Program-made: the position numbers and the translations under genes
The notes under the pieces: model-generated
Database searches by the model: none
Told to the model about the DNA's origin: nothing
What the model saw: the letters and a program-made list of their open reading frames with translations, nothing else
Assembly: GCA_035635475.1 (NCBI GenBank)
Contig: DASQAZ010000117.1
Location: 21,988-85,987 of the forward strand
Reading direction: 5' to 3'
Source: Bacteroidota bacterium
GTDB lineage: Bacteria > Bacteroidota > Ignavibacteria > UBA10030 > SZUA-254
DNA: 64,000 bases
In this document: positions 7,666-45,745 of the stretch, one piece after another
How positions within the stretch are numbered: position 1 is the stretch's first letter
Layout: each line of letters begins with the position of its first letter

Positions 7666-8337
7666 TTAATACGTCACATCATACGCCAGGGTGAAGAATT
7701 CCTCGCGTTCGTGGGTGTGGATCCGGATGACGCCGGCGCGGACGAGCCCGACGAGGGTCCGTGACGCCCGGCGATCGCTGATATTGACCAGCCTTCCGAA
7801 TTCCCGGAGTGTGATGCGCTGGTGCTGCTCCAAATGCTGAAACAACCTTCGCTCGTTCTCCCCGATCGCTATTTTGAGCGGCGGCGCGTTCACATTTTCA
7901 TTTTCGAGAATGCGGACGACTTCCCGGCTGGCCATGACGGTTTTGTCGTTCATCCGGATGTAGACGCGTGTATTTTCCCCGTTCATACGGTCGTGCGCTC
8001 CGAGAAAATAATGGGGCTTGTTCCGGCTTTCCTCGATTCGGCATACGATGACGTCCCTCCCATCAAAAGGCACAATCGTGATGCTCGGCCGAATCGCCGG
8101 GTCGCAGCAGTCTCTTCCGGCGAGCTCGATCAGTTCAACCTCGGATTTTTCACTCTCGACACCCGCGATCGAACCGTCGTCGTCAACCCCGAAGAGAATC
8201 GTCCCGCCCTTCGTGTTTGCGAACGAGATGATCGTACGGGCAATTTTCTCCGGCGATGAGATCCGCCGCTTGAATTCGATGCCGAATCCTTCGCCGTCTT
8301 CGATCAGCCGATTGACATCGCGAAAATTCATGTCCAA
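7666..8337 (-). CDS. AlbA_2 (Schlafen-like divergent AAA) domain protein with C-terminal winged-helix HTH; putative transcriptional regulator
   Basis: N-terminal pattern EFKRRISSPEKIARTIISFANTKGGTILFGVDDDG is typical of the AlbA_2 putative DNA-binding domain. The C-terminal part LFQHLEQHQRITLREFGRLVNISDRRASRTLVGLVRAGVI looks like a wHTH. Confidence 0.6.
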   Translation of the reverse strand: MDMNFRDVNRLIEDGEGFGIEFKRRISSPEKIARTIISFANTKGGTILFGVDDDGSIAGVESEKSEVELIELAGRDCCDPAIRPSITIVPFDGRDVIVCRIEESRNKPHYFLGAHDRMNGENTRVYIRMNDKTVMASREVVRILENENVNAPPLKIAIGENERRLFQHLEQHQRITLREFGRLVNISDRRASRTLVGLVRAGVIRIHTHEREEFFTLAYDVTY

Positions 8338-8369
8338 TAGATCCAGTAATTGAGGGCTGTGTGCCAGGG

Positions 8370-8789
8370 CTATCGGCCCTGCCGGTCGAGGTAGCCCTGG
8401 AGGATCAGCGCCGAGGCCATCTCGTCGATCGTCCCCCGGGACCTGCGCTTGAATTTCCCGACATTCATCTCGCGGAGAGTCCGGTGCGCCTCCTGTGTCG
8501 TGAAGCGTTCATCCTGCCGGACAATTTCAATTCCAAGCTCCGCTTCGAGCGCCCGAATGAACTCCTCAACTTCTTCCGCCTTTGAACCCTTTTGGCCTTT
8601 GAGATTCAAGGGAATGCCGACGACTATTTTTTCAACTTCAAATTCGCCTGCGATGCGTTTGATTTCCCCGATCAATTTTTCCGAATTCGGCAGGACCGTC
8701 ACGCCGCGTGCGATGATGTTCAGCGGGTCGCTGACGGCGATGCCGACGCGCTTGCTTCCATAATCGATGCCGAGAACGCGTTTCCCCAA
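8370..8789 (-). CDS. ruvX: Holliday-junction resolvase-like protein RuvX/YqgF
   Basis: RNase-H-fold YqgF signature VLGIDYGSKRVGIAVSD. 139 aa. Confidence 0.85.
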   Translation of the reverse strand: MGKRVLGIDYGSKRVGIAVSDPLNIIARGVTVLPNSEKLIGEIKRIAGEFEVEKIVVGIPLNLKGQKGSKAEEVEEFIRALEAELGIEIVRQDERFTTQEAHRTLREMNVGKFKRRSRGTIDEMASALILQGYLDRQGR

Positions 8790-8801
8790 CGCCGATCAGG
8801 C

Positions 8802-9143
8802 TCAATTGTTCGATGGGATCCGGCCTTCAAGCGGCTGGGAGAGAAAACTCTTGAGAAGTTTTCCCGGCTTGAAATGGGACTTCCGGCGTGAGGGCACGAA
8901 GATCACTTCTCCCGATTTGGGATTGCGGGCTTTTGGTTTCGACTTTGTGGGCTTGACTTCAAAAACTCCGAAGTCGCGGATCTCGATGCGCAGCCCGGGA
9001 TTGGCGCTCATCATGATTTCGCGCACGGCGGTGAATACCCGCTCGGTCCACTTCGCGGAGGCATTCACCTTCTCGCCGCTCGCGAGCGCCACCTTCCTGA
9101 TGATATCTCTCTTCGTGTACGTCCTCGCCCGCCGACCGTTCAT
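8802..9143 (-). CDS. hup: HU/IHF-family DNA-binding protein
   Basis: HU-fold arm motif RDFGVFEVKPTKSKPKARNPKSGEVIFVPSRRKSHFKPGKLLK. Confidence 0.8.
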   Translation of the reverse strand: MNGRRARTYTKRDIIRKVALASGEKVNASAKWTERVFTAVREIMMSANPGLRIEIRDFGVFEVKPTKSKPKARNPKSGEVIFVPSRRKSHFKPGKLLKSFLSQPLEGRIPSNN

Positions 9144-9156
9144 TAAATCCCCCTTC

Positions 9157-11340
9157 CTATTCCATAAGGCGTTCAGCCCTGTAGACGCCTTTGATTTTCC
9201 GCAGCTTCTCGATCACGCGAGCGAGGTGATCCGTATGCTTGACGCCGATGATAATCGTCCCCTCGAAGGCGGAGTCTCTTGCATCGATCTTGACGCCGCG
9301 AATGTTCGTATTCTGATAGGTCGATATCGCGTGGGTGATCTCGTTGAGCATGCCGGCGCGATCTTCGCCGGAGATGCGGATCGCCGTCGGATATTCGACG
9401 CCGTTGGTGACGGGCCATCCGACTTCCACAATCCGCCGGGGATCGGTCGCAATCATGGAGGTCAGGTTCTTGCACGACTTCACATGGATTTTCACTCCCT
9501 CGCCCTTCGTGACGAATCCAACGATCTCGTCGCCGGGGATCGGGTTGCAGCACTTTGCATAGCTGTGCATGAAGTTGTCGTGGCTGCCAAAGAGCGTGAT
9601 TCCTCCGGTAATGCTTCTGGCGGTGCTGAGAAACCTGTTGAACAAACCTTCCGTCTTCTCCGGCTTGGACGCTTCCGGTTGCAAGTGCTTCTGCTTCAAT
9701 TCGATTTCCTGGAGGACGGCCTCGGGATTGATCTCACCGCGATGAATCTTCAAATAGAACTCGCGGAGATCGTCAATCCTGAAGTCGTGCAGGTATTTCA
9801 CCATCTCATCTTCGCCGATGTGCGCCTTGAACTTCTTGGCCTTCTTCTCCCACTGTTCCCGGCCTTCCGCGATTGCCGAACGCTCTTCTTCCTTCAGCCA
9901 CTTGCGGACCTGCGCCTTTGCCTTGTGCGTGACGACGAATTGGTCCCAATCGGCTTTCGGAGTCTGGTGTTTCGATGTGATGATCTCGACCTGATCGCCG
10001 CTGCGGAGCTGGGAATCGAGGGGGACAATCCTCCCGTTGACCTTTGCGCTGAGGCAATGAAAGCCCACGTTGGAGTGGACGGCGAAGGCGAAGTCGACGG
10101 GGGTCGCCCCTTTCGGCAGGATTCTCAGCTCGCCCTTGGGCGTGAACAAATAAATCTCGTCCTGGTACAAATTCAGTTTGAAGCTTTCCATGAGCTGTTT
10201 CGCCGGCGCTTCCTCATCGGCGTGCTCGAAGATCTCGCGCACCCAGGAGATCCAGTTCTCCAGCTCCTCATCCAGCGTCGAGAGATTCTCTTTGTACTTC
10301 CAGTGGGCTGCAACTCCCTTTTCGGCGATTTCGTGCATGGTCCGGGTCCGGATCTGCATCTCCACCATCTTCCCCTCCGGCCCGACGACGGTCGCATGAA
10401 TTGAACGGTAGCCGTTCTTCTTCGGAACCGAAATGTAATTCTTAAAGCGCTCCGGGATGGGGATATAAATAGAAGAGATGATCCCGTAAGCGGTGAAGCA
10501 ATCATTCTCATTCTCGGTGTCGAGGATGATGCGCACCGCAAACAGATCGTAAATTTCGTCGAGCGGCTTGCTCCGGCCCACCATCTTATTATAGATGCTG
10601 TAAAGGTGTTTCGGTCTTCCTTCGCTTTCGAATTTCATCCCCTCCTCCACAAGGCGCTTTTCGAGGGGCACGACAAATTTGCGGATGTACGACTCCCGCT
10701 CCTTCCGACGGGCTTTGAGCTGGCGCGCAATGTTTTCATAGTCTTCCGGATGAAGGTACTTGAAGGCGAGGTCTTCCAGCTCCCATTTAATCTTTGCCAG
10801 GCCGAACCGGTGGGCAAATGGCGCATAAATGTCAAGCGTCTCTTTCGCCAGGCGAAGCTGCTTCTCCTGGGGGAGGTATTCGAGCGTCCGCATGTTGTGC
10901 AGCCGATCGGCAAATTTCAGGAGCATCACGCGGATATCGTTCACCATGGAGAGCAGCATCTTTCGATAGCTCTCGGCCTGGGTCACCTCATGACTGCGGA
11001 AAATGTCCGATATCTTGGTAGCACCGTCGACGATGTCGGCGACCGTATCGCCGAATTCCTGACGGATGTCCTTGATTTGGAATTCGGTATCTTCTGCAAC
11101 GTCATGGAGGAGCGCGCTTGCCACGGACACGTCATCGAGGGGAATTTCTTTCGCCACAACCATCGCCACTTCGTAGGGGTGGTTGAAAAACGGATCGCCG
11201 GACGCCCGGATGTCGTTCTTGTGGGCCTCCAGACTGAACTCGAAGGCCTTCCGGATCAGCTCTTCGTTGACCGTTCGAAGGTTCTTCCGGCAAACGATAA
11301 GAAGATCTTCGAGTTTCTTTTTATATATGCCGTCGCGCAT
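9157..11340 (-). CDS. rel: bifunctional (p)ppGpp synthetase/hydrolase RelA/SpoT
   Basis: 727 aa. Contains an HD hydrolase motif (HPYEVAMVVA...LLHDVAEDT), a synthetase domain (YRSIHATVVGPEGKMVEMQIRT) and TGS and ACT-like C-terminal regions. Confidence 0.9.
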   Translation of the reverse strand: MRDGIYKKKLEDLLIVCRKNLRTVNEELIRKAFEFSLEAHKNDIRASGDPFFNHPYEVAMVVAKEIPLDDVSVASALLHDVAEDTEFQIKDIRQEFGDTVADIVDGATKISDIFRSHEVTQAESYRKMLLSMVNDIRVMLLKFADRLHNMRTLEYLPQEKQLRLAKETLDIYAPFAHRFGLAKIKWELEDLAFKYLHPEDYENIARQLKARRKERESYIRKFVVPLEKRLVEEGMKFESEGRPKHLYSIYNKMVGRSKPLDEIYDLFAVRIILDTENENDCFTAYGIISSIYIPIPERFKNYISVPKKNGYRSIHATVVGPEGKMVEMQIRTRTMHEIAEKGVAAHWKYKENLSTLDEELENWISWVREIFEHADEEAPAKQLMESFKLNLYQDEIYLFTPKGELRILPKGATPVDFAFAVHSNVGFHCLSAKVNGRIVPLDSQLRSGDQVEIITSKHQTPKADWDQFVVTHKAKAQVRKWLKEEERSAIAEGREQWEKKAKKFKAHIGEDEMVKYLHDFRIDDLREFYLKIHRGEINPEAVLQEIELKQKHLQPEASKPEKTEGLFNRFLSTARSITGGITLFGSHDNFMHSYAKCCNPIPGDEIVGFVTKGEGVKIHVKSCKNLTSMIATDPRRIVEVGWPVTNGVEYPTAIRISGEDRAGMLNEITHAISTYQNTNIRGVKIDARDSAFEGTIIIGVKHTDHLARVIEKLRKIKGVYRAERLME

Positions 11341-11434
11341 ACCGTTCCGGTACCAGTCTCAACATCGAACGGGAGTTGTAAGTTCATCAAAATGCTGAAC
11401 TTGCTCCCCAAGAATATACTCCCGATGAGAATAA

Positions 11435-12091
11435 ATGTCAAGAATCGACCGGGCCGGAGGTCTGTTGAATGTCATAAAGAATTTCCGTAAGTTTTTGCAG
11501 GATCTTCCACCATCAGATTCCGGAGCCTTGCTATCAGACACTGAGAAACGGTTCCTGCTGGAGGCAGCACGTTCTTCAGTAGTGTCGGCCGTGAGGAAAA
11601 CGCCGCCGCGGTATTTCGAGTCTCACGAACCGTCCCTCGTCAGGCGGTGCGGGGCGTTTGTAACGCTCCGGGAAGGAAATGAACTGAGGGGCTGCATCGG
11701 GTACATCGATCCGATAAAACCCCTGGCGATCACGGTTTGCGAAGTCGCCGCCAAGGCGGCGCTTGAAGACACGCGTTTTCCGCCGGTAACACCGGGGGAA
11801 CTGGAGGGAATCAACATCGAAATCTCGGTGATCTCCCCCCTGACGAGGATGAAAGAGATCACGGAGATCGAGCTGGGAAAACATGGCTTGCTTATCGAAT
11901 ATAAAAGAAGCCGCGGATTGCTGCTTCCGCAGGTCCCGGCTGAGTTTGGCTGGGATCGCGGAACGTTTCTCGCGCAGACTGCCCGAAAAGCCGGACTGCC
12001 GCCCTTGATCTGGAATAATCCCGAAGCGGAGACCTATTTCTTCACTGCAGAGATTTTCGATGAGAAGTCGGAAATCCACGAGCGGATCTGA
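11435..12091 (+). CDS. AMMECR1 domain protein (AmmeMemoRadiSam system protein A-like)
   Basis: AMMECR1 core motif LRGCIGYI. The size (218 aa) fits. It overlaps the next gene by 32 bp. Confidence 0.8.
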   Translation: MSRIDRAGGLLNVIKNFRKFLQDLPPSDSGALLSDTEKRFLLEAARSSVVSAVRKTPPRYFESHEPSLVRRCGAFVTLREGNELRGCIGYIDPIKPLAITVCEVAAKAALEDTRFPPVTPGELEGINIEISVISPLTRMKEITEIELGKHGLLIEYKRSRGLLLPQVPAEFGWDRGTFLAQTARKAGLPPLIWNNPEAETYFFTAEIFDEKSEIHERI

Positions 12092-34999: not shown

Positions 35000-35456
35000 C
35001 CGGGGCCCGGCTTCCTTCCCCATCCGTCTCGTCGCGACAGGTTTATTCTCCGGGTATTCCCCCATCGCACCCGGGACTGCCGGCAGCCTCCTCGGCGTCG
35101 CCCTCTATTTAATCCCCGGATTCGAAGCCGATGCGGTTCTTGCTATAGCGATCATCGTCACATTTCTCCTCGGCGTCTATGCCTCTGCACAAATGGAGAA
35201 CGAGCTCGGCGAAGACCCGCCCGTCGTCGTGATCGATGAGGTCGTTGGGATGTGGATCTCCCTCCTTCTCCTGCCAAAAACTGTATGGGTTGTCTCGCTT
35301 TCGTTTCTCTTATTCCGCGCATTCGACATTCTCAAACCTCCTCCCGCACGCCGGCTCGAGCAGTATCGGCATGGATGGGGAATCATGCTTGATGATGTCG
35401 CGGCGGGGGTCTATGCCAATGTCGCGGCGAGGTTCGTGCTGCTCCTCTTCCGATGA
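34965..35456 (+). CDS. pgpA: phosphatidylglycerophosphatase A
   Basis: PgpA N-terminal motif LVATGLFSGYSPIAPGTAGSL. Start is ambiguous (ATG 34935 or 34965). It overlaps the pgsA 3' end. Confidence 0.7.
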   Translation: MQDTSARQDRADRGPASFPIRLVATGLFSGYSPIAPGTAGSLLGVALYLIPGFEADAVLAIAIIVTFLLGVYASAQMENELGEDPPVVVIDEVVGMWISLLLLPKTVWVVSLSFLLFRAFDILKPPPARRLEQYRHGWGIMLDDVAAGVYANVAARFVLLLFR

Positions 35457-36697
35457 GAAGCATCATCATAACGATCGGCGATGAGCTTTTGATCGGTCAG
35501 GTCATGAACACCAATGCCTCGTTCATCGCAGAAAAACTCACCGCCGCGGGTGTCGAGGTTTGCCGCATGCTCACCGTGTCGGACGATGAGCCGGAGATCG
35601 TGAAAGCGTTCGAGGAGGCGCTTCCCCGGTACGACCTTACCATTGCCACCGGCGGCCTGGGGCCGACGCATGACGATGTCACGAAGAAGGCGGTGTGCCG
35701 GTTTTTCGGTGTTGATCTCGTCCCGAGCCCGGAAGTTCGAAGGACGATCGAGGAATTCCTGCTCCAGCGGAATATTCCCTGGTCGCAGGCGGCGGAAGAG
35801 CAAACTCTGGTGCCCCGCGGAGCGGTGATCATCCCAAACCGCCGGGGTACGGCGCCCGGCGAACTCATCGAGCGGGATCATCGCCATCTCGTCGTCCTGC
35901 CCGGCGTTCCCCACGAGATGGAAGGCATGGTGGAAGAGTTCGTTGTCCCGTTTGTGAAGGAGAGGTCTTCGGGGCAGGTGATTCTCAATCGAACGCTGAA
36001 AACAACAGGCATTTCCGAGTCCGCGCTCGCGGAGCGGATCGGCGCGATCGATCAGCTCCTCGCGCGGGGAGAACGGCTCGCGTTTCTTCCGTCCGCATCC
36101 GGCGTTCGCATGCGCATCTCGGTAACAAACAGCGACCGGGCCGCTGCCGAACGGAGAATCAGCGAGATCGAATCCGTCATCCGTGCCCGCGTGGGGAAAT
36201 ATATCTACGGGGCCGACCAGGAGGAGCTGGAACAAGTGGTGGGCGCCATACTGCGGGAGCGAGGACTGAGAATTGCCGTGGCAGAATCGTGCACCGGAGG
36301 TTTAATCGCCGACAAGATCACGAATGTGCCGGGAAGCTCAGACTATTTCGAGCGCGGGGTCGTCGCCTACAGCAACGCCTCCAAAATTGACCTTCTCCAC
36401 GTGCCATCCCGGCTGATCAATCAGCACGGGGCGGTCAGCCAGGAGGTTGCCGAGGCGATGGCAACCGGCATTCGGACCGTTTCCGGCACCGACATCGGGC
36501 TCTCCACAACCGGAATCGCCGGGCCGGCGGGCGGTACGGAGGAAAAACCGGTGGGTCTGGTCTGGATCGGCTATTCCGACGTTTCACGGACAATTGCCGT
36601 CAAGTTTCAGTTCGGCCGTGAACGCCTTATAATTAAACAACGGGCCGCGCAAGCCTCTCTGGAGATGGTCAGAAGAAGGCTCCTCAAGATCAGGTAG
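35453..36697 (+). CDS. cinA: competence/damage-inducible protein CinA (MoCF-binding domain + C-terminal PncC NMN-deamidase domain)
   Basis: MRSIIITIGDELLIGQVMNTNASFIAEKL N-terminus. C-terminal CinA_C region (AVAESCTGGLIADKITNVPGSS). Confidence 0.9.
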   Translation: MRSIIITIGDELLIGQVMNTNASFIAEKLTAAGVEVCRMLTVSDDEPEIVKAFEEALPRYDLTIATGGLGPTHDDVTKKAVCRFFGVDLVPSPEVRRTIEEFLLQRNIPWSQAAEEQTLVPRGAVIIPNRRGTAPGELIERDHRHLVVLPGVPHEMEGMVEEFVVPFVKERSSGQVILNRTLKTTGISESALAERIGAIDQLLARGERLAFLPSASGVRMRISVTNSDRAAAERRISEIESVIRARVGKYIYGADQEELEQVVGAILRERGLRIAVAESCTGGLIADKITNVPGSSDYFERGVVAYSNASKIDLLHVPSRLINQHGAVSQEVAEAMATGIRTVSGTDIGLSTTGIAGPAGGTEEKPVGLVWIGYSDVSRTIAVKFQFGRERLIIKQRAAQASLEMVRRRLLKIR

Positions 36698-36698
36698 A

Positions 36699-37265
36699 AT
36701 GGCGTCCGTTCGCACGTTCATCGCCTTCAACACACCCGAGGCTATCCGTCAATCGATCACGGCGTTACAATCGGAGCTACGGAAGTCCGGTGCTGATGTC
36801 CGCTGGGAGACGCCCGATACGTTTCACGTCACGATCAAGTTTCTCGGAAATGTGGATGAATCGCAACTCCCGGGGCTCACCCGGCAGATTCAATCGGCGT
36901 GCGAAAATTATCGATCCTTCGAGGTTTGGTACCGGGGGGCGGGGGGCTTCCCGGATCTGAAGCATCCGCGCGTGATCTGGCTGGGGTGCGAAAACGAGGA
37001 TGGAACGCTCGCCAAAATCAGAAGCTCGCTCGATGCCCTCTTGCTCCCGCACGGATTTGAGATTGAAGAGCGGCCCTTCCGCCCACACGTCACGCTCGGA
37101 CGAATCAGGAGTCCGAAGGGCTTGCATTACTTGACTCCAAAGCTGGAAAACCTTACCTTTGAGCCACAGATGGGAACGATTCGCGAAGTTCTCGTCGTGA
37201 AGAGCGTGTTGCGGCCTCAGGGAGCGGCGTACACCGTCTTATCGTCAATTCAACTTCAATCATAA
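36699..37265 (+). CDS. thpR: RNA 2',3'-cyclic phosphodiesterase (ThpR/LigT, 2H family)
   Basis: Two HxT/S-x motifs, HVTIKF and HVTLGR. Confidence 0.75.
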   Translation: MASVRTFIAFNTPEAIRQSITALQSELRKSGADVRWETPDTFHVTIKFLGNVDESQLPGLTRQIQSACENYRSFEVWYRGAGGFPDLKHPRVIWLGCENEDGTLAKIRSSLDALLLPHGFEIEERPFRPHVTLGRIRSPKGLHYLTPKLENLTFEPQMGTIREVLVVKSVLRPQGAAYTVLSSIQLQS

Positions 37266-37269
37266 CAGA

Positions 37270-37692
37270 ATGGCCTCAACACGTATGGGACTGCGAGCCA
37301 AAGGAAAGGCCAAGATCGTGCTCTTCATCGACGACGAAACGCCGTGGCTGAACATGATCAAGACCGCCGTTGAAAACGCACCGTTCGACATCATGACTGC
37401 CGACAGCGGGGAAGCCGCCCTAAGGAAAATCAAGCGGAAAAAGCCGGATTTAATTCTCAGCGATGTGCGGATGCCCGCCATGAACGGGTTCGACCTCTTT
37501 GAAAAAATCCGGAGCGATCCCCGTTACAGGAATGTCCCTTATGTTTTCATGTCCTCCATCGATGATTTTGACGCACGTCGAACCGCAAAGGAAATCGGTG
37601 CGGATGATTACGTGGAGAAACCGATCGACACCGAGCAGGTCGAGTCTATTGTCCTGAAGCTGTTGACGCGGTTCAAGGACAACAAGTCGTAA
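37270..37692 (+). CDS. single-domain response regulator (CheY-like receiver only)
   Basis: Receiver residues are intact: acidic pocket LFIDDETP, phospho-acceptor LILSDVRMP, conserved Lys in VEKP. No output domain. Confidence 0.75.
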   Translation: MASTRMGLRAKGKAKIVLFIDDETPWLNMIKTAVENAPFDIMTADSGEAALRKIKRKKPDLILSDVRMPAMNGFDLFEKIRSDPRYRNVPYVFMSSIDDFDARRTAKEIGADDYVEKPIDTEQVESIVLKLLTRFKDNKS

Positions 37693-37741
37693 GAATTAAG
37701 TCACGTGCCTCGACCATTCACTCATCGTTAAGGAGGGTATC

Positions 37742-38833
37742 ATGGCGGAAGAAATGACACAACGAGAATCGCGCATGCAAGCGCTCCGGATTGCGATCGA
37801 GCAGATCGAGAAGCAGCACGGTAAGGGAGCGATCATGAAGCTCGACGGGGGGCCGATCGCCAAAATCGAGGCAATTTCGACCGGCTCGATCTCCCTCGAC
37901 GGCGCGACCGGCATCGGCGGCATCCCGCGGGGCCGTGTCATCGAGGTGTTCGGCCCGGAGGCGTCGGGTAAGACGACGCTCTGCCTGCATGTTATCGCAG
38001 AAGCGCAGCGGAAGAGCGGCATCGCGGCGTTTATCGACACCGAACATGCACTCGATATCGCTTACGCAAAGAGACTCGGCGTCGACGTCAACAACTTGCT
38101 GCTCTCGCAGCCCGAGTACGGCGAACAGGCGCTGGAGATCGTGGAGACACTTGTAAGAAGCGGGGCGCTCGATGTCATCGTGATCGATTCCGTCGCCGCT
38201 CTCACTCCCCGCGCCGAAATTGAAGGCGAGATGGGCGATCCGACGATGGGAGTGCAGGCGCGGCTCATGTCGCAGGCGCTTCGGAAGCTTACGGCGGCAA
38301 TCAGCAAATCGAAAACATCGGTGATCTTCACCAACCAGCTGAGACAAAAAATCGGCATCATGTTCGGGAATCCGGAAACAACAACCGGAGGCAACGCACT
38401 GAAGTTTTATGCCTCGCTCCGGCTCGACGTCCGTCGCATCGAAGCAATCAAGGACGGACAGAACATTGTCGGGAATCGGGTAAAGGTCAAGGTTGTGAAG
38501 AATAAGGTCGCCCCGCCCTTCAAAGAGGCTCAATTTGATATTCTGTATAACGAGGGGATCTCAAAGCTCGGCGATCTGATCGATATTGCGGTCGACCATA
38601 ACGTGATCTCCAAGAGCGGTTCGTGGTTCGGCTATGGAAGCGAACGGATCGGCCAGGGGCGCGACGCTGTCAAGAAGTTCCTGCTCGACAACGAGAGGAT
38701 GGCGAAAGAGATCGATCTCGTGATGCGCAAGAAACTGGGCTTGATCGAGGAGGACGCTCAGCCAAAGCATGTCAAGCCGGAACCCGCGGCCCCCAGGCAC
38801 GAAATCGCGTTGAAAAAGCCGGCGAGGGTCTGA
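37742..38833 (+). CDS. recA: recombinase RecA
   Basis: Walker [11 protein letters not shown]. RecA loops L1/L2 ([36 protein letters not shown]). Confidence 0.95.
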
Positions 38834-38857
38834 CCCGCCGGGATCGGACCCTGCGTC

Positions 38858-39505
38858 ATGCTCGTTACAAAGATCGAATGGCAGAAACGGGATCCTCACC
38901 GCGTGAACCTGTTCATCGACGGTGAGTTTGCCTTCGGCCTCCAGGACGAGGTTCTGCTCCGCAGCGGGATCCGCAAGGGAGATCAGCTCTCGGAGGAAGA
39001 ACTGGAAACAATGCAGGCCTCCGGGGAATTTGCGCTTGCCAAACGACAAGCCCTGAGGATTCTCGCCCGCCGCCTCAGGAGCGAAGCCGAAATCAGGACA
39101 CACCTTCTCGAAAAAGAGTTCCATCCACGAACCGTCGACCGCGTCATTCTCAAACTCCGGGAGCTGCGCCTGGTGGACGACCTGCGCTTCGCGCGCGCGT
39201 GCGTCCACGACATGCGGCTGCGGAGAGCCCTGGGCCGCATCGCACTCGAGCGTCAGCTTCGATTAAAGGGCGTTCCGCGATCGACGATCATGGAGGTGCT
39301 TGGCGAAGTCGGAGGACGGGAAGACGATGCTGCAATCGCGCTCCAGGCGGTAACCAAGCTTCTGAAACGCTATAGCACATCCCGAAAGAAGCTTTTGCCC
39401 GAGCAGCAGCGCGCACGGGCGATTCAGTTCCTTGCACGGCGGGGCTTCGACGGCGAGACGATCTCCCGGGTGATAACGAGAGCGACGCGGGAGGACCGTT
39501 CGTGA
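38858..39505 (+). CDS. recX: recombination regulator RecX
   Basis: RecX three-repeat helical architecture. It lies immediately downstream of recA. Confidence 0.8.
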   Translation: MLVTKIEWQKRDPHRVNLFIDGEFAFGLQDEVLLRSGIRKGDQLSEEELETMQASGEFALAKRQALRILARRLRSEAEIRTHLLEKEFHPRTVDRVILKLRELRLVDDLRFARACVHDMRLRRALGRIALERQLRLKGVPRSTIMEVLGEVGGREDDAAIALQAVTKLLKRYSTSRKKLLPEQQRARAIQFLARRGFDGETISRVITRATREDRS

Positions 39506-39529
39506 GGCGGGGGAGGAACAACGGCGCGC

Positions 39530-40195
39530 ATCATTTTTGATATCGAAACACTCGGCCTGCCGATCGAATCGTTCGACGAAGCGCGCCGGGCCTACCTGTT
39601 GAAGTCAGCGGAGACACAACACGCGAGGGAAACCGAGGTCCAGAAGCTGAGCCTCAGTCCGCTGACGGCCCAGATCGTCGCGATCGGCATGCTGAATCCC
39701 GACACCATGGCGGGGAAAGTTCTGTACCAATCGGCAAAACAAGAGCAGTCCGGGCCTGACGAGCGCAACATCGAGTACCACGCCGGCACTGAAGAGCAGA
39801 TCGTGCGCCAATTCTGGGATGACGTGAGGCACTACGATCAGTTTATCACTTTTAATGGCCGGAGCTTCGACTGTCCGTTTCTGATGATTCGGTCTGCCAT
39901 GCTGTCGATTCCGCCTACGCGCAGTCTCATGCCCTACCGGTACGACTCATCGACTCACTGCGATTTACTCGATCAGTTGACATTTTACGGGGCCGTCCGC
40001 CGCTTCAATCTCGATTTCTACTGCAAGTCGTTCGGGATCAAGAGCCCGAAAAGCGAAGGCGTCTCCGGCCTCGACATCGGTCCGATGTTTCGTGAAGGCA
40101 AGTTCAAGGAGATCGCACAGTACTGCGCAGGCGATGTGATCGCCACGGCGGAGCTGTTCAGGAAGTGGGATGCGTTCATTAATATCAAAGCCTAG
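39530..40195 (+). CDS. 3'-5' exonuclease, PolB-exonuclease-like RNase-H fold (DNA_pol_B_exo2/YprB-like)
   Basis: Exo I IIFDIETLGLP, Exo II ITFNGRSFDCPFL, Exo III YCAGDVIATAELF. The first canonical start (TTG 39599) lies downstream of Exo I. The frame is open from the recX stop (39506) with GGGGGAGG immediately upstream, so initiation is probably at ATC/ATT 39530/39533 or the sequence contains an error. Confidence 0.7.
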   Translation: MIFDIETLGLPIESFDEARRAYLLKSAETQHARETEVQKLSLSPLTAQIVAIGMLNPDTMAGKVLYQSAKQEQSGPDERNIEYHAGTEEQIVRQFWDDVRHYDQFITFNGRSFDCPFLMIRSAMLSIPPTRSLMPYRYDSSTHCDLLDQLTFYGAVRRFNLDFYCKSFGIKSPKSEGVSGLDIGPMFREGKFKEIAQYCAGDVIATAELFRKWDAFINIKA

Positions 40196-40204
40196 CTCCT
40201 GGCG

Positions 40205-41062
40205 ATGACCGGGCAGATCCGCTCCGCCGGCGCTTCCTCTCCCCGGCTTGACGAAACAGATTTCCTGGTAGTCGACGTCGAGACAACAGGACTGTCCGCC
40301 GAAGGCGGGGATCGCGTCTGCGAACTCGGGGCTGTCAAGCTGCGGGGCGGCGCCGTCATCGCCACGCTCGGAACATTGATCGATCCCTGCCGGCCTATCT
40401 CAAACGGAGCGTACGCCGTCAATCACATCTCCCCCGAGATGCTTCGGGACGCGCCGGTCTTCACCGGTGTGGCCGAGCGGTTGTGGGGCATGATGCAGGA
40501 CTCGATTCTTGTGGCCTACAACGCCCCCTTCGATCTCTCCTTTCTTGCCGTCGAATTCCGTCTCCTTGGCTATCCGCCCATCCTCAATCCCGTAGTCGAT
40601 GCTTTGGCGATTGCCCGCCGTCTGCTTCCAGGGCTCGAACGATACCCTCAGGGAAATGTGGCACGAATCCTCGGAATCGGGGGCTCGGTGCAACACCGCG
40701 CGCTCGAGGATGCGATGGTCACCGCGAAGATCTTCACGGTTTTTTCATCGATCCTCAAGGCGTACGATTGCACGGCCGTCTCTGATCTGAACCGCAGGGA
40801 TCTACTTCAGGTGCTCTACAACCGGAGAATGAGCATCCTGACCGATGCCCTGTCGAGCGCACGCGATGTCTGGATCAAGTACCTCTCCCCTTCCAACGGG
40901 GAGATTTCGGACCGGATCGTCTCGCCCAAGGAACTCAGCGGGAAAAGCCCCGGCGCGGAGGCCCGCTATCTCATCGCCTATTGCCACACGGCAAAGGGCG
41001 AGAGAGATTTCAGGATCGACCGCATCCTCGATCTCCGGTTGATGGATTCCAAATCGGTGTGA
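40205..41062 (+). CDS. DnaQ-like DEDDh 3'-5' exonuclease fused to a C-terminal WYL domain
   Basis: Exo I VVDVETTGLS, Exo II LVAYNAPFDLSFL, Exo III HRALEDAMVTA (DEDDh). The C-terminal ~100 aa carry the WYL signature VWIKYLSPSNGEISDRIVSPKELSG...YLIAYCHTAKGERDFRIDRILDL. Confidence 0.7.
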   Translation: MTGQIRSAGASSPRLDETDFLVVDVETTGLSAEGGDRVCELGAVKLRGGAVIATLGTLIDPCRPISNGAYAVNHISPEMLRDAPVFTGVAERLWGMMQDSILVAYNAPFDLSFLAVEFRLLGYPPILNPVVDALAIARRLLPGLERYPQGNVARILGIGGSVQHRALEDAMVTAKIFTVFSSILKAYDCTAVSDLNRRDLLQVLYNRRMSILTDALSSARDVWIKYLSPSNGEISDRIVSPKELSGKSPGAEARYLIAYCHTAKGERDFRIDRILDLRLMDSKSV

Positions 41063-41083
41063 CCCCGCAGCGGGGGGCGGGAA

Positions 41084-44000
41084 TCAGGAGACGGGATGAA
41101 TCGGAAGGCGGATCACGAACGCAGTGCCCTCGCGGGCGTCATTACGGGCTTCCACGCTGCCGCGGTGACTCTCCACGATCCACTTGACAAGCGCCAGCCC
41201 CAATCCTGTTCCCCCTCCCATTGAGCTCTCCGATTGCCCGCTCCTGAACGGATCAAAGATATTCGGGAGGATTTCGGACGAAATGCCCTTGCCGGAGTTG
41301 AAAAATCTGAAGACGAGTTCATGTTCCTCCGCCGTGTAGCTCAGGCGAATTCTTCCCTTGGCAGGGGTAAACTTGATCGCATTGTCGAGAAGATTAAAGA
41401 GTATGTGGCGCATCTGGCCGGGGTCGGCCCGGATAGACACCGGGGGTCCCTTTCTCAGCACCATGCTGATTTTCTTCTCGCGCGTTAATATCTGCGATTC
41501 ACGATAGAATTCCCTTAACAGGTCGTAGAAATTGATATCCGTTAGATCCAGTTTGAATGTGCCGGCCTGCATCCTGCTTAAACTAAGCAGCTCGTCGACG
41601 ACCCTCGTGAGGTGGAGGACTTCATCGTACGTCTCGCTCAATGCCCTCCGCAGCGACTGGCTGGAGAGGTCGGGCCTCAGGGCGTTCTCGAGCTGACTCC
41701 TGAGGATTGTGAGGGGCGTGCGCAACTGATGGGAGGCCATCGATGAAAGACTCAGCGTTCGCTGAGCGCGCGCGCGAATCTTCTCCACAACCTCATTGAT
41801 GTCCCGCGCCAGGTCATGCCTCCTCCGGGCCGGGTCTGTGCCCAGCCGTTGAAATCCTTCGGCGGAAGGGAGCCGCTCTTCGGAACCGGTATCGAATAGT
41901 CTCTCGATCCGGACGGCCGCCTGCCACAATACTTCTTCTGCCTTCGCGATCTCGCTGATATCGCGAGCGACCCCGATGAGGCCCAGGACCGTCCCTTTGC
42001 CGTCCCTGATCTGCGACGTGCTGAGAAAGACGGGAAAGTCCCTGCCGTCCTTCGTCCGGTTGAGCAGTTCCCCCGCCCAACCGCGCCGGCGGGAGTGTTC
42101 GAAGATCTGCCGTGAGAGCTCCGGCGATGTCGAGGGAGAACGAACGACATCCGGGAATTTCCCCAGGATTTCCTTCTCGGCGTAGCCGTACTTGTCAAGA
42201 AACGCCCGGTTGGCAAAGATGATCCGGTTTTCGAGATTCGTTATGCAGATCATCTCGGTGGTACTCTCCAGGGCCTGCGCAAGAAGCCGGATTTGTTTTT
42301 CAGTCTGCCTCTGCTGCGTAATATCGCGTCCGGTCGTCGAGGCTCCGCTGATCCAACCGGCCTCCTCTGTAATCGGCGAGACCGTGAGAGACAACATGAT
42401 CCGCCGTCCGTCCTTATGCAGGCACTCTGTTTCGTAATGCTCCAGCGCCTCTCCGCGCTTGATCGTGTCGAGGATTTGCCGCAGATCATCGGGATGGTCC
42501 GCCGGAATCAGAGTCGAGATCGGGCGGCCGATCATGTCCTCGGCGGCATATCCGTACACGCGCTCAGCCCCCCGGTTCCAGCTCGTGATGATGCCCTCCG
42601 TGGTCTGACTGATGATGGCATCGTCCGAAGATTCGATGATCGCCGCAAATTTGATCAGCGCCTCCTGAGCCCGCTTGTGCACGGTCATGTCGACGATCGA
42701 TACCAGAACCGTCGAATACGTTTCCTCACTCCCCGGCGGAACCGACCACTTCAGATAGATGTTGATCGTCTCCCCCCGGAAAGTCTTATTGACATCCTCG
42801 CTCTCGAAGACCGTCTTGCCCTGGGCGACCGCGGTCACCTCTTCTCTGAACACTTGATAGGATTCCCGGCTCAAGACTCTCTGCAGTCCCTCCAGGAAGT
42901 CCGATTTGCTTCGGGCTTCATAGAGACGAAGGGTCGCCTGGTTCACGTCGACCACTTTCACCTTCGCGGCACATTCCGCCACCGCCTCCGGGTGCGTTCT
43001 GAAATGCAGGGCAACGTCCGAAACCCCCTTCGCGCGCAATCCGTCGACGAACTTCTTGACCTCCGAGAAGTCTTCTTCCCAGAGCGAGATGGGTGAGTTT
43101 TCGAAGAATCCCCGGTATCGCTCCCTGCTCTGAAAGAGCGTCTCCTCCGCCTGGATCCGTTCCCCGATCTCGTGAGCGAGAGCGTCATTCACCCCCGCCA
43201 GTTCGGCGGTTCGTTCGCGAACGCGTTGTTCAAGCTCGTCGTTGAGCTTCCGGACTTCCTCTTCCGCCTGCCAGCGTTCGGTGATGTCCTGAGACGTGCC
43301 TGCCATGCGCTCGGGGATGCCGGCATCGGATTTGATCACCTTCCCCTCCCCATGGACGATGCGGACGATGCCGTCGGGACGAACGATGCGGTGGTCGAAC
43401 GCAAACGGCTCTCCGGTCCTTTCCGATTGCTCGACACGGGCCTTCACTCTCGCCCGGTCGTCGGGATGGACAGCCGTCAGGAAGCTTTCGTATGTCCCCT
43501 CGAACCCCTTCCGGTTCACTCCGTAGATATCATAGAGCTCGTCGGACCACGTGATCCGGTTTTCAACGATATTCCACTCCCAGCTCCCGATATGGGCCTG
43601 CTCCTGCGCCTCGGTCAGCATTCTGTTGACCTCGCTCAGCTGCACCGTTCGCAGGCGGACCCGGTCCTCGAGCTCATCCCGGGCCGTTTGAAGGGATTCA
43701 ATCGCCTCGCGGCGCTCGGCGCCTGCAGCAGCCAGGCAGAGAGTCGTCAGAGCTACGACCCCCATGAACATTTGCAGCGCCAAGAGGCGCTCGTCAATCG
43801 TATGGCCCTTGAAGGGCCCTGATCCCAATGACTCAAACCAGATCGCAACGATCGAGAGAACAAACGTCGAGGTCGTGGCTCCCTTCTGTCCGAACCGCAA
43901 GGCTGCCCAGATCAGGACGGGAAAGATATAGTAGGGTCTGATGTATCGTGCCAGAGCGGGCTGGAACCAATCGCCGAAATTTATCATCGCTACCGCGGCC

Positions 44001-44596
44001 AGAACGACGACGAGGATTGCAGCTTCGAGTTTTCGCAAAAACGAATGACCCTGGGGCGGCGTGCGAAGCCACGCGGTGATCAACGGACAAACGACAAGCG
44101 CTCCGATCGCATCGCCGATCCACCAGGTCATCCAGGTGTAGCCGAAACCTCCCGAATCAATTTTCCCGGCGATCCACAGGCTTGACACGCCGATGCTGGG
44201 ACTGACGGCGGTGCTGAAGAGCACGCACAGGATCACAAAACCGAGAACATCCCGCACCCGTTCGAGCCCTACATGAAACCCGCCCCGGCGGAACAGGTAA
44301 ACCGCAACAACCGCTTCCAGCATGTTGCCGATTCCGATCGAGAGCGCAACCGGGATCGGCGCGCCCACCGTGGCATTTGCCAGGAATGCGCCGAGCAGCA
44401 CACCCGGCCACAGCCGGTATCCGAAGATCAGAAGGGCAGCAATGGATATTCCCGTGGGGGGCCAGACGAGCGTGGCAAATCCGGAGACCGCATTGATCGC
44501 TAATCCCAGTCGCGCCGCCCCGAAATAGACGGCAGCGAGAATTACAATCTCCACCGCTTGCCGGGCGCGGGAGGGCGTTTCAGTTCGCGGGGACAT
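41084..44596 (-). CDS. sensor histidine kinase with N-terminal MASE1 membrane domain and four PAS domains
   Basis: MASE1-like multi-TM N-terminus. Repeated PAS segments. HisKA H-box SMASHQLRTPLTILRSQLE. HATPase_c (GTGLGLALV). Start taken at MSPRTETPS (44596). The ORF opens at 44647. Confidence 0.85.
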   Translation of the reverse strand: MSPRTETPSRARQAVEIVILAAVYFGAARLGLAINAVSGFATLVWPPTGISIAALLIFGYRLWPGVLLGAFLANATVGAPIPVALSIGIGNMLEAVVAVYLFRRGGFHVGLERVRDVLGFVILCVLFSTAVSPSIGVSSLWIAGKIDSGGFGYTWMTWWIGDAIGALVVCPLITAWLRTPPQGHSFLRKLEAAILVVVLAAVAMINFGDWFQPALARYIRPYYIFPVLIWAALRFGQKGATTSTFVLSIVAIWFESLGSGPFKGHTIDERLLALQMFMGVVALTTLCLAAAGAERREAIESLQTARDELEDRVRLRTVQLSEVNRMLTEAQEQAHIGSWEWNIVENRITWSDELYDIYGVNRKGFEGTYESFLTAVHPDDRARVKARVEQSERTGEPFAFDHRIVRPDGIVRIVHGEGKVIKSDAGIPERMAGTSQDITERWQAEEEVRKLNDELEQRVRERTAELAGVNDALAHEIGERIQAEETLFQSRERYRGFFENSPISLWEEDFSEVKKFVDGLRAKGVSDVALHFRTHPEAVAECAAKVKVVDVNQATLRLYEARSKSDFLEGLQRVLSRESYQVFREEVTAVAQGKTVFESEDVNKTFRGETINIYLKWSVPPGSEETYSTVLVSIVDMTVHKRAQEALIKFAAIIESSDDAIISQTTEGIITSWNRGAERVYGYAAEDMIGRPISTLIPADHPDDLRQILDTIKRGEALEHYETECLHKDGRRIMLSLTVSPITEEAGWISGASTTGRDITQQRQTEKQIRLLAQALESTTEMICITNLENRIIFANRAFLDKYGYAEKEILGKFPDVVRSPSTSPELSRQIFEHSRRRGWAGELLNRTKDGRDFPVFLSTSQIRDGKGTVLGLIGVARDISEIAKAEEVLWQAAVRIERLFDTGSEERLPSAEGFQRLGTDPARRRHDLARDINEVVEKIRARAQRTLSLSSMASHQLRTPLTILRSQLENALRPDLSSQSLRRALSETYDEVLHLTRVVDELLSLSRMQAGTFKLDLTDINFYDLLREFYRESQILTREKKISMVLRKGPPVSIRADPGQMRHILFNLLDNAIKFTPAKGRIRLSYTAEEHELVFRFFNSGKGISSEILPNIFDPFRSGQSESSMGGGTGLGLALVKWIVESHRGSVEARNDAREGTAFVIRLPIHPVS

Positions 44597-44643
44597 TGAT
44601 ATGGGGGGGAAAGGGGCCGGGGGCTTCACCCCGCCGGTTCGAG

Positions 44644-45318
44644 TCAACGATCGATGAGGATGAACCCTTCCCCATGCATCGTGTGGATGAGCTTTCTTGA
44701 AAAGCCTTTATCGAGGGCATTGCGCAGGTAGCTGATGTACACATCGACGATGTTCGTACCGGTTTCGAACTTGTACCCCCAAATCTGCTCAATCAGCCGT
44801 TTACGCGTGAGGATTTGGTTCTTATTTCGAAGAAGAAATTCCAGGAGTGAAAACTCCTTTTCACTCAGCGGAATCTTTTCGCCCGCGCGCTCCACGGTCC
44901 GCCGTACGACATCCATCGTGAGATCGGCTGCCTGCAGAACGGCTGTCCGGGAGAAACCGGAGCGCCGGAGAACGGCTTCGATACGCGCGACCAGCTCGCC
45001 GGAGTCGAACGGCTTTGCGAGGTAATCGTCGGCCCCGGTCCTCAGGCCTTCGATGCGGTGCTCGACCCCCTCCAATGCGGTCAGAATAAGCACGGGAGTC
45101 GCATACGACGCAGCGCGGAGATCACGCAATACCTCCAGACCCGACTTCTTCGGCAGATTGAGGTCGAGCACGATTATATCATATCCCCCTCGTCTCGCCC
45201 GCGCCTCTGCATCGATGCCATCCCCCGCGATCTCGACGAAATTGCCGGCCCGTTCGAGCTGTTCCTTGATTGATCGCGCCAGCTTCTTCTCGTCTTCGAC
45301 GAGCAGGATGCGAATCAT
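44644..45318 (-). CDS. OmpR-family two-component response regulator (REC + winged-helix Trans_reg_C)
   Basis: MIRILLVEDE...IIVLDLNLP receiver. C-terminal wHTH with LTRKRLIEQIWGY. ATG at 45318..45316. The ORF track extends it 43 codons upstream. Confidence 0.85.
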   Translation of the reverse strand: MIRILLVEDEKKLARSIKEQLERAGNFVEIAGDGIDAEARARRGGYDIIVLDLNLPKKSGLEVLRDLRAASYATPVLILTALEGVEHRIEGLRTGADDYLAKPFDSGELVARIEAVLRRSGFSRTAVLQAADLTMDVVRRTVERAGEKIPLSEKEFSLLEFLLRNKNQILTRKRLIEQIWGYKFETGTNIVDVYISYLRNALDKGFSRKLIHTMHGEGFILIDR

Positions 45319-45745
45319 CGGCTTTCCATCTACCAATTCCCGACGCATGAGATTCGTCCGGTCATGGTGATCCAAAAGGGTGGCACTGCCACCGATCGAA
45401 GGGTCAGCGCCCGCTTGAAGGGCCATGTGCCCCGACCGCTGAGGCAAGCCCTGTTGCGCGGATCTGAAGCAACGAATGAGACAGGATCCCCTCGACGAAA
45501 TGCCACGCCCCCGAAAGTCACGGAAATATAGGGAGCCTTGGGGTCATTGTCAATTTGAAATCCTTTTCCGGGATGCTCCCGGCCGCAAATGGGGCCGGAG
45601 CGATGGATATTCAACCGCCCGGGGGTAGCAAAGGGAAGGGTTTCTAAGAAAATTCTAATGAACATTAGCGCATTTTAACTTGCTAATTGCCAGGTTTGAG
45701 ATTACCTTGAAATGGTGGATTAGTGGAGGCTGTACATGGGGTGAT

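Follow-up and report, generated by a model that had tools for sequence, protein, structure and literature searches.

A DEDDh exonuclease–WYL fusion protein encoded behind recA and recX in an Ignavibacteria-like lineage

We analysed a 64,000-nucleotide stretch of a Bacteroidota bacterium genome (contig DASQAZ010000117.1, hereafter the window) and focused on one complete gene, whose product we call ExoWYL. In this protein of 285 residues a DEDDh (DnaQ-like) 3'-5' exonuclease domain is followed by a helical linker and a C-terminal WYL domain. The features of the gene are as follows.

40205..41062, + strand: ExoWYL gene, complete in the list of open reading frames (ORFs); 285 amino acids plus stop, ATG start, uninterrupted
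40265..40735, + strand: DEDDh (DnaQ-like) 3'-5' exonuclease domain, residues 21-177 (Pfam RNase_T, PF00929, E=1.2e-30)
40274..40282, + strand: Exo I motif D24-V-E26, read from the translation
40532..40534, + strand: Exo II catalytic Asp D110, read from the translation
40694..40711, + strand: Exo III motif H164-x4-D169 (HRALED; DEDDh subclass), read from the translation
40760..40855, + strand: conserved helical linker, residues 186-217 (AlphaFold2 secondary structure: short helix 192-196, long helix 200-217)
40832..41038, + strand: WYL domain, Pfam residues 210-278; five-stranded Sm-like barrel at 222-279
41003..41026, + strand: R267-D-F-R270-I-D-R273-I motif, the basic ligand groove of the WYL domain

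An identical copy of the protein is found on two metagenome contigs. The AlphaFold2 model, calculated from a 29-sequence alignment, is compact and has two domains (mean predicted local distance difference test score, pLDDT, 90.6; predicted template modelling score, pTM, 0.87), with 6-7 residues beyond the last WYL strand. A Pfam scan found no helix-turn-helix (HTH) family at E<=1, the N-terminus being the exonuclease domain, no match to the WCX domain, and no helicase domain, the catalytic domain being RNase_T. An artefactual fusion of two genes is ruled out by the continuous reading frame, by more than 140 sequences from several phyla that agree in length and architecture, and by the compact model.

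A sequence-only reading of this DNA had claimed DnaQ/epsilon-type motifs, including H-x4-D, and D24-V-E26, D110 and H164-RALE-D169 are all present in the translation. We counted conservation across 140 aligned relatives, 117 of them close and 23 distant, where the catalytic residues are nearly invariant: E26 and H164 are found in all 140 sequences, D24, D110 and D169 in 139 each. Searches of the PDB by sequence match the domain to the PolC-type exonuclease domain of T. maritima (2p1j, 3e-28), PolC, the S. aureus DinG exonuclease domain and E. coli epsilon; identity is 40% to the T. maritima domain and 22-25% to RNase T. Structure comparison agrees, with Foldseek matching the N-terminal part to epsilon, PolC and DinG at E values of 1e-12 to 1e-14 and superposing about 174 residues on epsilon at a root-mean-square deviation (rmsd) of 1.7-2.1 A.

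The best NCBIfam matches are PolC, DinG, PRK07883 DEDD exonucleases, epsilon and ExoX, and no equivalog cut-off is reached. The epsilon equivalogs score far below theirs (PRK05711 90.8 against 196, TIGR01406 90.0 against 222.7, PRK06310 77.6 against 236); TIGR00573, a general dnaq subfamily-domain model, is passed with 104 bits against 71.5. No clamp-binding motif of the QL[SD]LF type was found in the translation, and the C-terminal 100 residues form the helical linker and the WYL barrel, not an epsilon-like segment that binds alpha (PHP). ExoWYL thus has the fold, all three Exo motifs and the H-x4-D in common with the group formed by PolC, the N-terminal part of DinG, epsilon and ExoX, and differs from it in being a stand-alone protein of 285 residues with a WYL tail and no fused polymerase or helicase. 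Because no equivalog cut-off is reached, no clamp motif is found and a WYL tail replaces the alpha-binding peptide, ExoWYL is most likely a free-standing DEDDh 3'->5' exonuclease with no part in replication, belonging to the PolC/DinG/epsilon clade.

In E. coli exonuclease I (SbcB), too, an SH3-like barrel comes after a DnaQ fold. The two proteins do not superpose as wholes: Foldseek to 3c95/4js4 gives an rmsd of about 12 A and a template modelling (TM) score of 0.52, no better than for the exonuclease domain alone. SbcB has an extra C-terminal helical domain and a non-WYL barrel, whereas ExoWYL has no third domain. We therefore regard the likeness as a loose analogy and not as membership.

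For the C-terminal region, a WYL domain with a conserved R-x-F-R motif had been claimed. This is borne out by profile, sequence and structure comparisons, the motif being R267-D-F-R-I-D-R-I274; neither of the alternatives raised at the time, an unrelated SH3-like fold or a degenerate tail, was found. Pfam WYL (PF13280) matches at E=4.4e-11 with 43.1 bits against a gathering cut-off of 21.8 and covers profile positions 4-69 of 70. A profile of residues 186-285 finds in the PDB the Pif1 helicase of Deferribacter (8bnv, E=6.3e-10, residues 434-509), PafBC (6e-8) and PafC (1e-6), and further the Sulfurihydrogenibium Pif1 (8bns, 2e-6) and BrxR. The long linker helix and the barrel align jointly to residues 434-509 of the Deferribacter protein (DdPif1) and to PafBC, and the linker residues D194, R197, D199 and R208 are invariant. 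The modelled barrel is five-stranded, Sm-like and nearest to solved WYL domains, and Foldseek with the whole model matches the C-terminal part to PafBC (E=2e-7). Generic Sm/Hfq barrels score about 7.5 in structure comparison, WYL1, whose ligand is RNA, 7.6 and the SH3-like domain of exonuclease I 6.4; the barrel is structurally nearer to the WYL domains that bind single-stranded DNA (ssDNA) than to WYL1.

The groove of these ssDNA-binding domains can be traced in ExoWYL residue by residue. A hidden Markov model alignment to M. smegmatis PafC places F200-R201-F-D-R204-I onto F269-R270-I-D-R273-I and R171/Y186/R198 onto R237/Y255/R267, and R181/Y196/R208/R211/R214 of PafB have their counterparts in R237/Y255/R267/R270/R273, all present. 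Each of these five PafB residues is required for ssDNA binding, PafC R201/R204 are also essential (PMC11804915), and the matching DriD residues make ssDNA contacts in crystal structures (PMC9186387). The 117 close relatives keep R237 in 98, Y255 in 75, R267 in 102 (K in 11 more), R270 in 94 and R273 in 112; the corresponding counts in the 23 distant members are 23, 21, 22, 21 and 12. Y226 and F269 are almost invariant across the family. Since the groove positions are largely conserved across the family, the groove is under selection, which speaks for a functional WYL domain able to bind a ligand.

One orthologue shows a degraded WYL region. The protein of the Ignavibacteriae metagenome-assembled genome (MAG) BY39 (locus L019, 7965-8879) has 304 residues; its exonuclease domain has gained some 30 residues by insertion, and several arginines of the groove are gone from its WYL region (…DDQRQKFFINRIFKI). 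The order recA-recX-exonuclease-ExoWYL is kept at this locus.

In the window, ExoWYL is the last gene of a same-strand series, made up of the following genes upstream of it.

35453..36697, + strand: cinA
36699..37265, + strand: thpR/ligT, RNA 2',3'-cyclic phosphodiesterase family
37270..37692, + strand: receiver-only response regulator
37742..38833, + strand: recA (RecA Pfam label on the identical contig)
38858..39505, + strand: recX (RecX Pfam matches, and RecX Pfam label on the identical contig)
39530..40195, + strand: PolB-exonuclease-like gene of the RNase H fold (PF10108; Pfam DNA_pol_B_exo2, E=5e-22)

ExoWYL starts nine bases past the PolB-like gene. A scan of the + strand from 35000 to 41400 gave no terminator-like site; it uses E. 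coli-type sigma-70 rules and is weak evidence for this phylum. The genes of the series may be co-transcribed.

The start of the PolB-like gene is anomalous. Its listed ORF begins with TTG at 39599, while the predicted Exo I motif IIFDIETLG is encoded earlier, from about 39530; no in-frame ATG, GTG or TTG lies between the recX stop codon TGA (39503-39505) and this motif, and the ORF shares its reading frame with recX. Orthologues at L005, L007, L009 and L019 have an ATG just before VVFDIETL; the one at L010 is also without Met there. The gene may start at ATC or ATT, the TGA may be read through to yield a fusion of RecX and the exonuclease, or the protein may be truncated and inactive.

Downstream, a MASE1-multi-PAS histidine kinase of 1187 residues (41084-44647, - strand) converges on ExoWYL, with about 20 nucleotides between the stop codons, and is followed by an OmpR-type response regulator (44644-45447, - strand). 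This pair is found in the closest relatives (L001-L004), and other genes take its place in more distant loci.

The series recurs across the lineage. Ten Ignavibacteria-lineage loci had enough upstream sequence (the window contig, L003/L004, L005/L006, L007, L009, L010, L019, L091, L094 and the P0114 contig), and all ten show the order cinA-thpR-receiver-recA-recX-(PolB-like exonuclease)-ExoWYL, usually behind pgsA-pgpA. The PolB-like gene lies directly upstream of ExoWYL in eight of the ten, often with an overlap of 1-14 nucleotides. L003/L004 have no PolB-like gene and ExoWYL follows recX directly, with a 3-nucleotide gap in L003; at L091 two transporter genes are inserted behind recX, and the PolB-like exonuclease and ExoWYL are still adjacent. 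These loci are well diverged, RecX being 32-48% and CinA 55-61% identical among them. The genes downstream of ExoWYL vary by locus (histidine kinase, BioY, ORF6N, acetyltransferase, secreted protein). The lineage-wide placement of ExoWYL behind recA-recX and beside a second exonuclease is new here.

A receiver-only response regulator of about 125-140 residues, with no output domain, separates thpR from recA at all the Ignavibacteria-lineage loci examined (window, L001, L003, L005, L007, L009, L010, L019, L091 and L094). Such a phosphorylation-controlled input beside recA is unusual.

Linkage to recA as a trait of the whole family was rejected. It is missing from all seven Chloroflexota loci and from three Omnitrophota-like loci, where the neighbours are unrelated, and from one further locus. 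On the three Omnitrophota-like contigs (L089 3418-6822, L092 3808-5828, L093 4646-5828) ExoWYL lies just downstream of a tRNA_bind gene (PF01588), accompanied by YjbQ in two, LDcluster4 in one and, after ExoWYL, hydrogenase maturation genes in two; this adjacency may reflect shared ancestry or may hint at an RNA-related role.

At L091, from Ignavibacteriales, two genes lie 3-4 kb downstream of ExoWYL. One encodes a 285-residue HTH_11-WCX protein (9905-10762, - strand) with no WYL match recorded; its Pfam labels resemble the HTH-WYL-WCX regulator class, and it is possibly a WYL-type regulator that coexists with ExoWYL. The other encodes a stand-alone RNase_T exonuclease of 164 residues (11130-11624, + strand), so that a WYL-less DnaQ paralogue coexists with ExoWYL in at least one genome.

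At about 20 loci examined we found no defence-island, CRISPR or restriction neighbours, the neighbours being housekeeping genes. PADLOC gives ExoWYL generic DEDDh and WYL domain models or partial exonuclease-domain matches to PDC-S48. An anti-phage defence component was rejected on both grounds, the matches being at domain level only and no locus having defence neighbours.

The sequence-only reading had implied that the fusion is rare, and this does not hold. A search of about 5.8 billion proteins with ExoWYL gave 2304 matches; the best 120 of these are all 243-311 residues long and 54-100% identical, almost all carry PF00929 and PF13280, and their named sources are Ignavibacteria/Bacteroidota MAGs. 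More than 100 full-length orthologues, 55-88% identical and with both Pfam domains, come from Ignavibacteria-like metagenomic genomes. A scan of one genome per species added full-length relatives from Chloroflexota (Chloroflexia, Anaerolineae) of the same length and 37-41% identity, with the motif YLVAYCH...ERTFRLDRI. The C-terminal module profile matched 1101 of 1.84 billion cluster representatives at E<=0.001; 26 of the best 150 also have an exonuclease domain, and about 20 of these 26 are full-length (265-311 residues) in separate 50%-identity clusters. Named members among these matches belong to Omnitrophota, Patescibacteria and Ignavibacteriales. The family therefore spans at least 20 divergent 50%-identity clusters in several phyla. 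One full-length match from Latescibacterota (L016) was rejected as a member: it is a 1164-residue DinG-type multi-exonuclease helicase matched through its exonuclease domains only, and by eye two to three tandem DnaQ-like exonuclease domains precede the DinG-type helicase (7809-11303).

Annotation pipelines already recognise the architecture. NCBI labels relatives 'WYL domain-containing protein' or 'exonuclease domain-containing protein', and the Joint Genome Institute (JGI) pipelines label many members 'DNA polymerase III epsilon subunit family exonuclease'. Makarova et al. 2014 list an architecture of WYL plus 3'->5' exoRNase (PMC4012209); this two-domain architecture (Pfam RNase_T + WYL) is very probably identical to that of ExoWYL, and the entry is a catalogue line that comes with neither a description at the sequence level nor an analysis of context nor an experiment. 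Exonuclease fusions are mentioned in passing by Gozzi et al. 2022 (PMC9186387). We found no published characterisation of such a fusion; literature searches gave only CRISPR gene lists and transcription-factor papers. The exonuclease–WYL fusion is a database-annotated, literature-listed family and not a new type of system, and it is unstudied.

Among characterised proteins, the winged HTH-WYL-WCX factors (PafBC, DriD, CapW, BrxR) differ from ExoWYL, which has no HTH, no WCX dimerisation domain and a catalytic output. We rejected ExoWYL as a regulator of that kind, as winged HTH and WCX are both absent, and for the same reason its WYL module cannot act like the transcription factors. Bacterial Pif1 (TePif1; DdPif1, PDB 8BNV) and ExoWYL are alike in consisting of an enzyme and one C-terminal, helix-preceded WYL barrel without HTH or WCX. 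Both keep the basic groove residues, and Pif1 is the best PDB sequence match of the linker and WYL profile. The partner is an SF1B helicase there and a DEDDh exonuclease here, and the polarity of engagement would differ. In TePif1 from Thermotoga elfii, the C-terminal WYL domain serves as an accessory module that binds ssDNA, and both high affinity for ssDNA and the coupling of ATPase and unwinding depend on it (10.1101/163188; PMC9964779); the Pif1 WYL domain has been modelled on the 5' side of the 5'->3' motor (PMC9964779). Judged by these profile matches, the WYL domain of Pif1 helicase is the closest characterised precedent for ExoWYL. That both halves of ExoWYL are under selection, with a WYL module akin to the Pif1 accessory type, is likewise new here.

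We hypothesize that the WYL groove grips ssDNA on the upstream side of the 3' end under digestion, recruiting, anchoring or stimulating the nuclease, and that the protein serves RecA-dependent repair in this lineage; with modest confidence, we consider this explanation probable. A rigid helical linker would join the exonuclease to a C-terminal WYL (Sm-like) domain that has neither HTH nor WCX. The groove of Y226, R237, Y255, R267, F269, R270 and R273 would bind ssDNA a few nucleotides 5' of the 3' end in the active site, with DNA as the likely substrate, so that the WYL domain would be an accessory ssDNA-binding element for a nuclease acting on 3' tails, flaps and gaps. In the Ignavibacteria-like lineage ExoWYL would process 3' ends during RecA-dependent repair, a probable role because the gene closes the recA-recX same-strand cluster. 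The idea put forward in the sequence-only reading, that the WYL domain couples the nuclease to ssDNA or another ligand, is plausible given the conserved groove residues; simple tethering is at least as likely as the allosteric gating it implied.

Several points weigh against the hypothesis of a groove that holds ssDNA for the nuclease. The WCX domain and the linker that complete the ssDNA site in DriD and PafBC are missing from ExoWYL, and some orthologues have R270 or Y255 substitutions and fall below the Pfam WYL threshold. Because the recA linkage is confined to one lineage and the neighbours elsewhere are unrelated, it could be inherited gene order and not a functional operon. Finally, we found no biochemical data in the literature for any exonuclease–WYL member.

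The WYL domain could instead be a sensor that releases the exonuclease from an inactive state when ssDNA fragments or a nucleotide second messenger bind, possibly as part of an antiviral or stress system. WYL domains in transcription factors are indeed ssDNA-triggered allosteric switches (PMC9186387, PMC11804915, PMC11662680) and one WYL transcription factor has been reported as a c-di-GMP sensor (PMC11880434). The conserved groove would suit such a sensor, the compact two-domain model could support autoinhibition, and PADLOC counts its generic DEDDh and WYL models as CRISPR-associated. However, the known allosteric mechanism needs WCX-mediated dimers, which ExoWYL has no WCX to form, and the nearest sequence relative of its WYL module is of the Pif1 accessory DNA-binding type. 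The loci show none of the defence context described above, and a constitutively conserved housekeeping position speaks against a toxic effector; we consider gating of this kind possible but unlikely. It is also conceivable, and we think quite doubtful, that the module works by 'sense-and-erase': the WYL domain would recognise the short ssDNA that activates WYL damage regulators and feeds RecA, and ExoWYL and the PolB-like exonuclease would degrade it. If true, this would be a negative feedback on the RecA/WYL damage response and the first WYL domain to control directly the destruction of its own ligand, resembling the CARF-domain ring nucleases that destroy their own cyclic-oligoadenylate signal.

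Two further explanations concern the substrate and the partner of the nuclease. ExoWYL would be an exoribonuclease if, like RNase T, it trimmed RNA 3' ends and its Sm-like WYL domain bound single-stranded RNA. The exonuclease domain, however, is far nearer to DNA proofreading and repair enzymes (PolC at 40% identity; epsilon, ExoX, DinG) than to RNase T, which is matched at the lower identity given above and with weaker Foldseek E values, and the barrel's greater likeness to ssDNA-binding WYL domains than to WYL1 points the same way. The presence of ThpR/LigT, from an RNA 2',3'-cyclic phosphodiesterase family, in the window cluster might suggest RNA, but clustering of cinA, thpR and recA is common in bacteria; the tRNA_bind gene beside ExoWYL might suggest it as well, but the three loci probably come from related organisms. 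There remain the Pfam family name RNase_T, the term 3'->5' exoRNase used by Makarova et al. 2014 (PMC4012209), and the Sm-like fold of WYL together with the accessory WYL1 of Cas13d, cited as enhancing Cas13d activity (PMC9186387). On this balance we judge an RNA substrate unlikely. That ExoWYL is the replicative proofreading subunit (Pol III epsilon), with WYL in place of the usual C-terminal tail, is very improbable. The JGI label, the passed TIGR00573 model and the finding of no second DnaQ-like gene within the 64-kb window would fit such a subunit, but the scores are far below the epsilon equivalog cut-offs, the clamp motif and the alpha-binding C-terminal segment are both missing, and ExoWYL neighbours recA and not replication genes. 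Related genomes moreover have separate RNase_T-only genes (4 kb off at L091; WYL-less DnaQ in Ignavibacteria and Melioribacteraceae MAGs).

WYL domains have recently been recognised as ssDNA sensors of non-SOS DNA-damage responses (PafBC, DriD) and in the control of phage-defence operons (CapW, BrxR). Mechanistic work on them is almost all on transcription factors, and Pif1 helicase is the only WYL enzyme fusion with published biochemistry that we found in the literature. A compact protein of 285 residues such as ExoWYL would be a simple system for studying how catalysis is coupled to the binding of ssDNA by a WYL domain. The present analysis does not reveal a new type of system; its value lies in a functional hypothesis, well supported and open to test, for a protein family that is widespread and has been ignored until now. 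In bacteria of the Ignavibacteria type, which have no studied model organisms, ExoWYL could reveal an uncharacterised 3'-end-processing step in recombinational repair.
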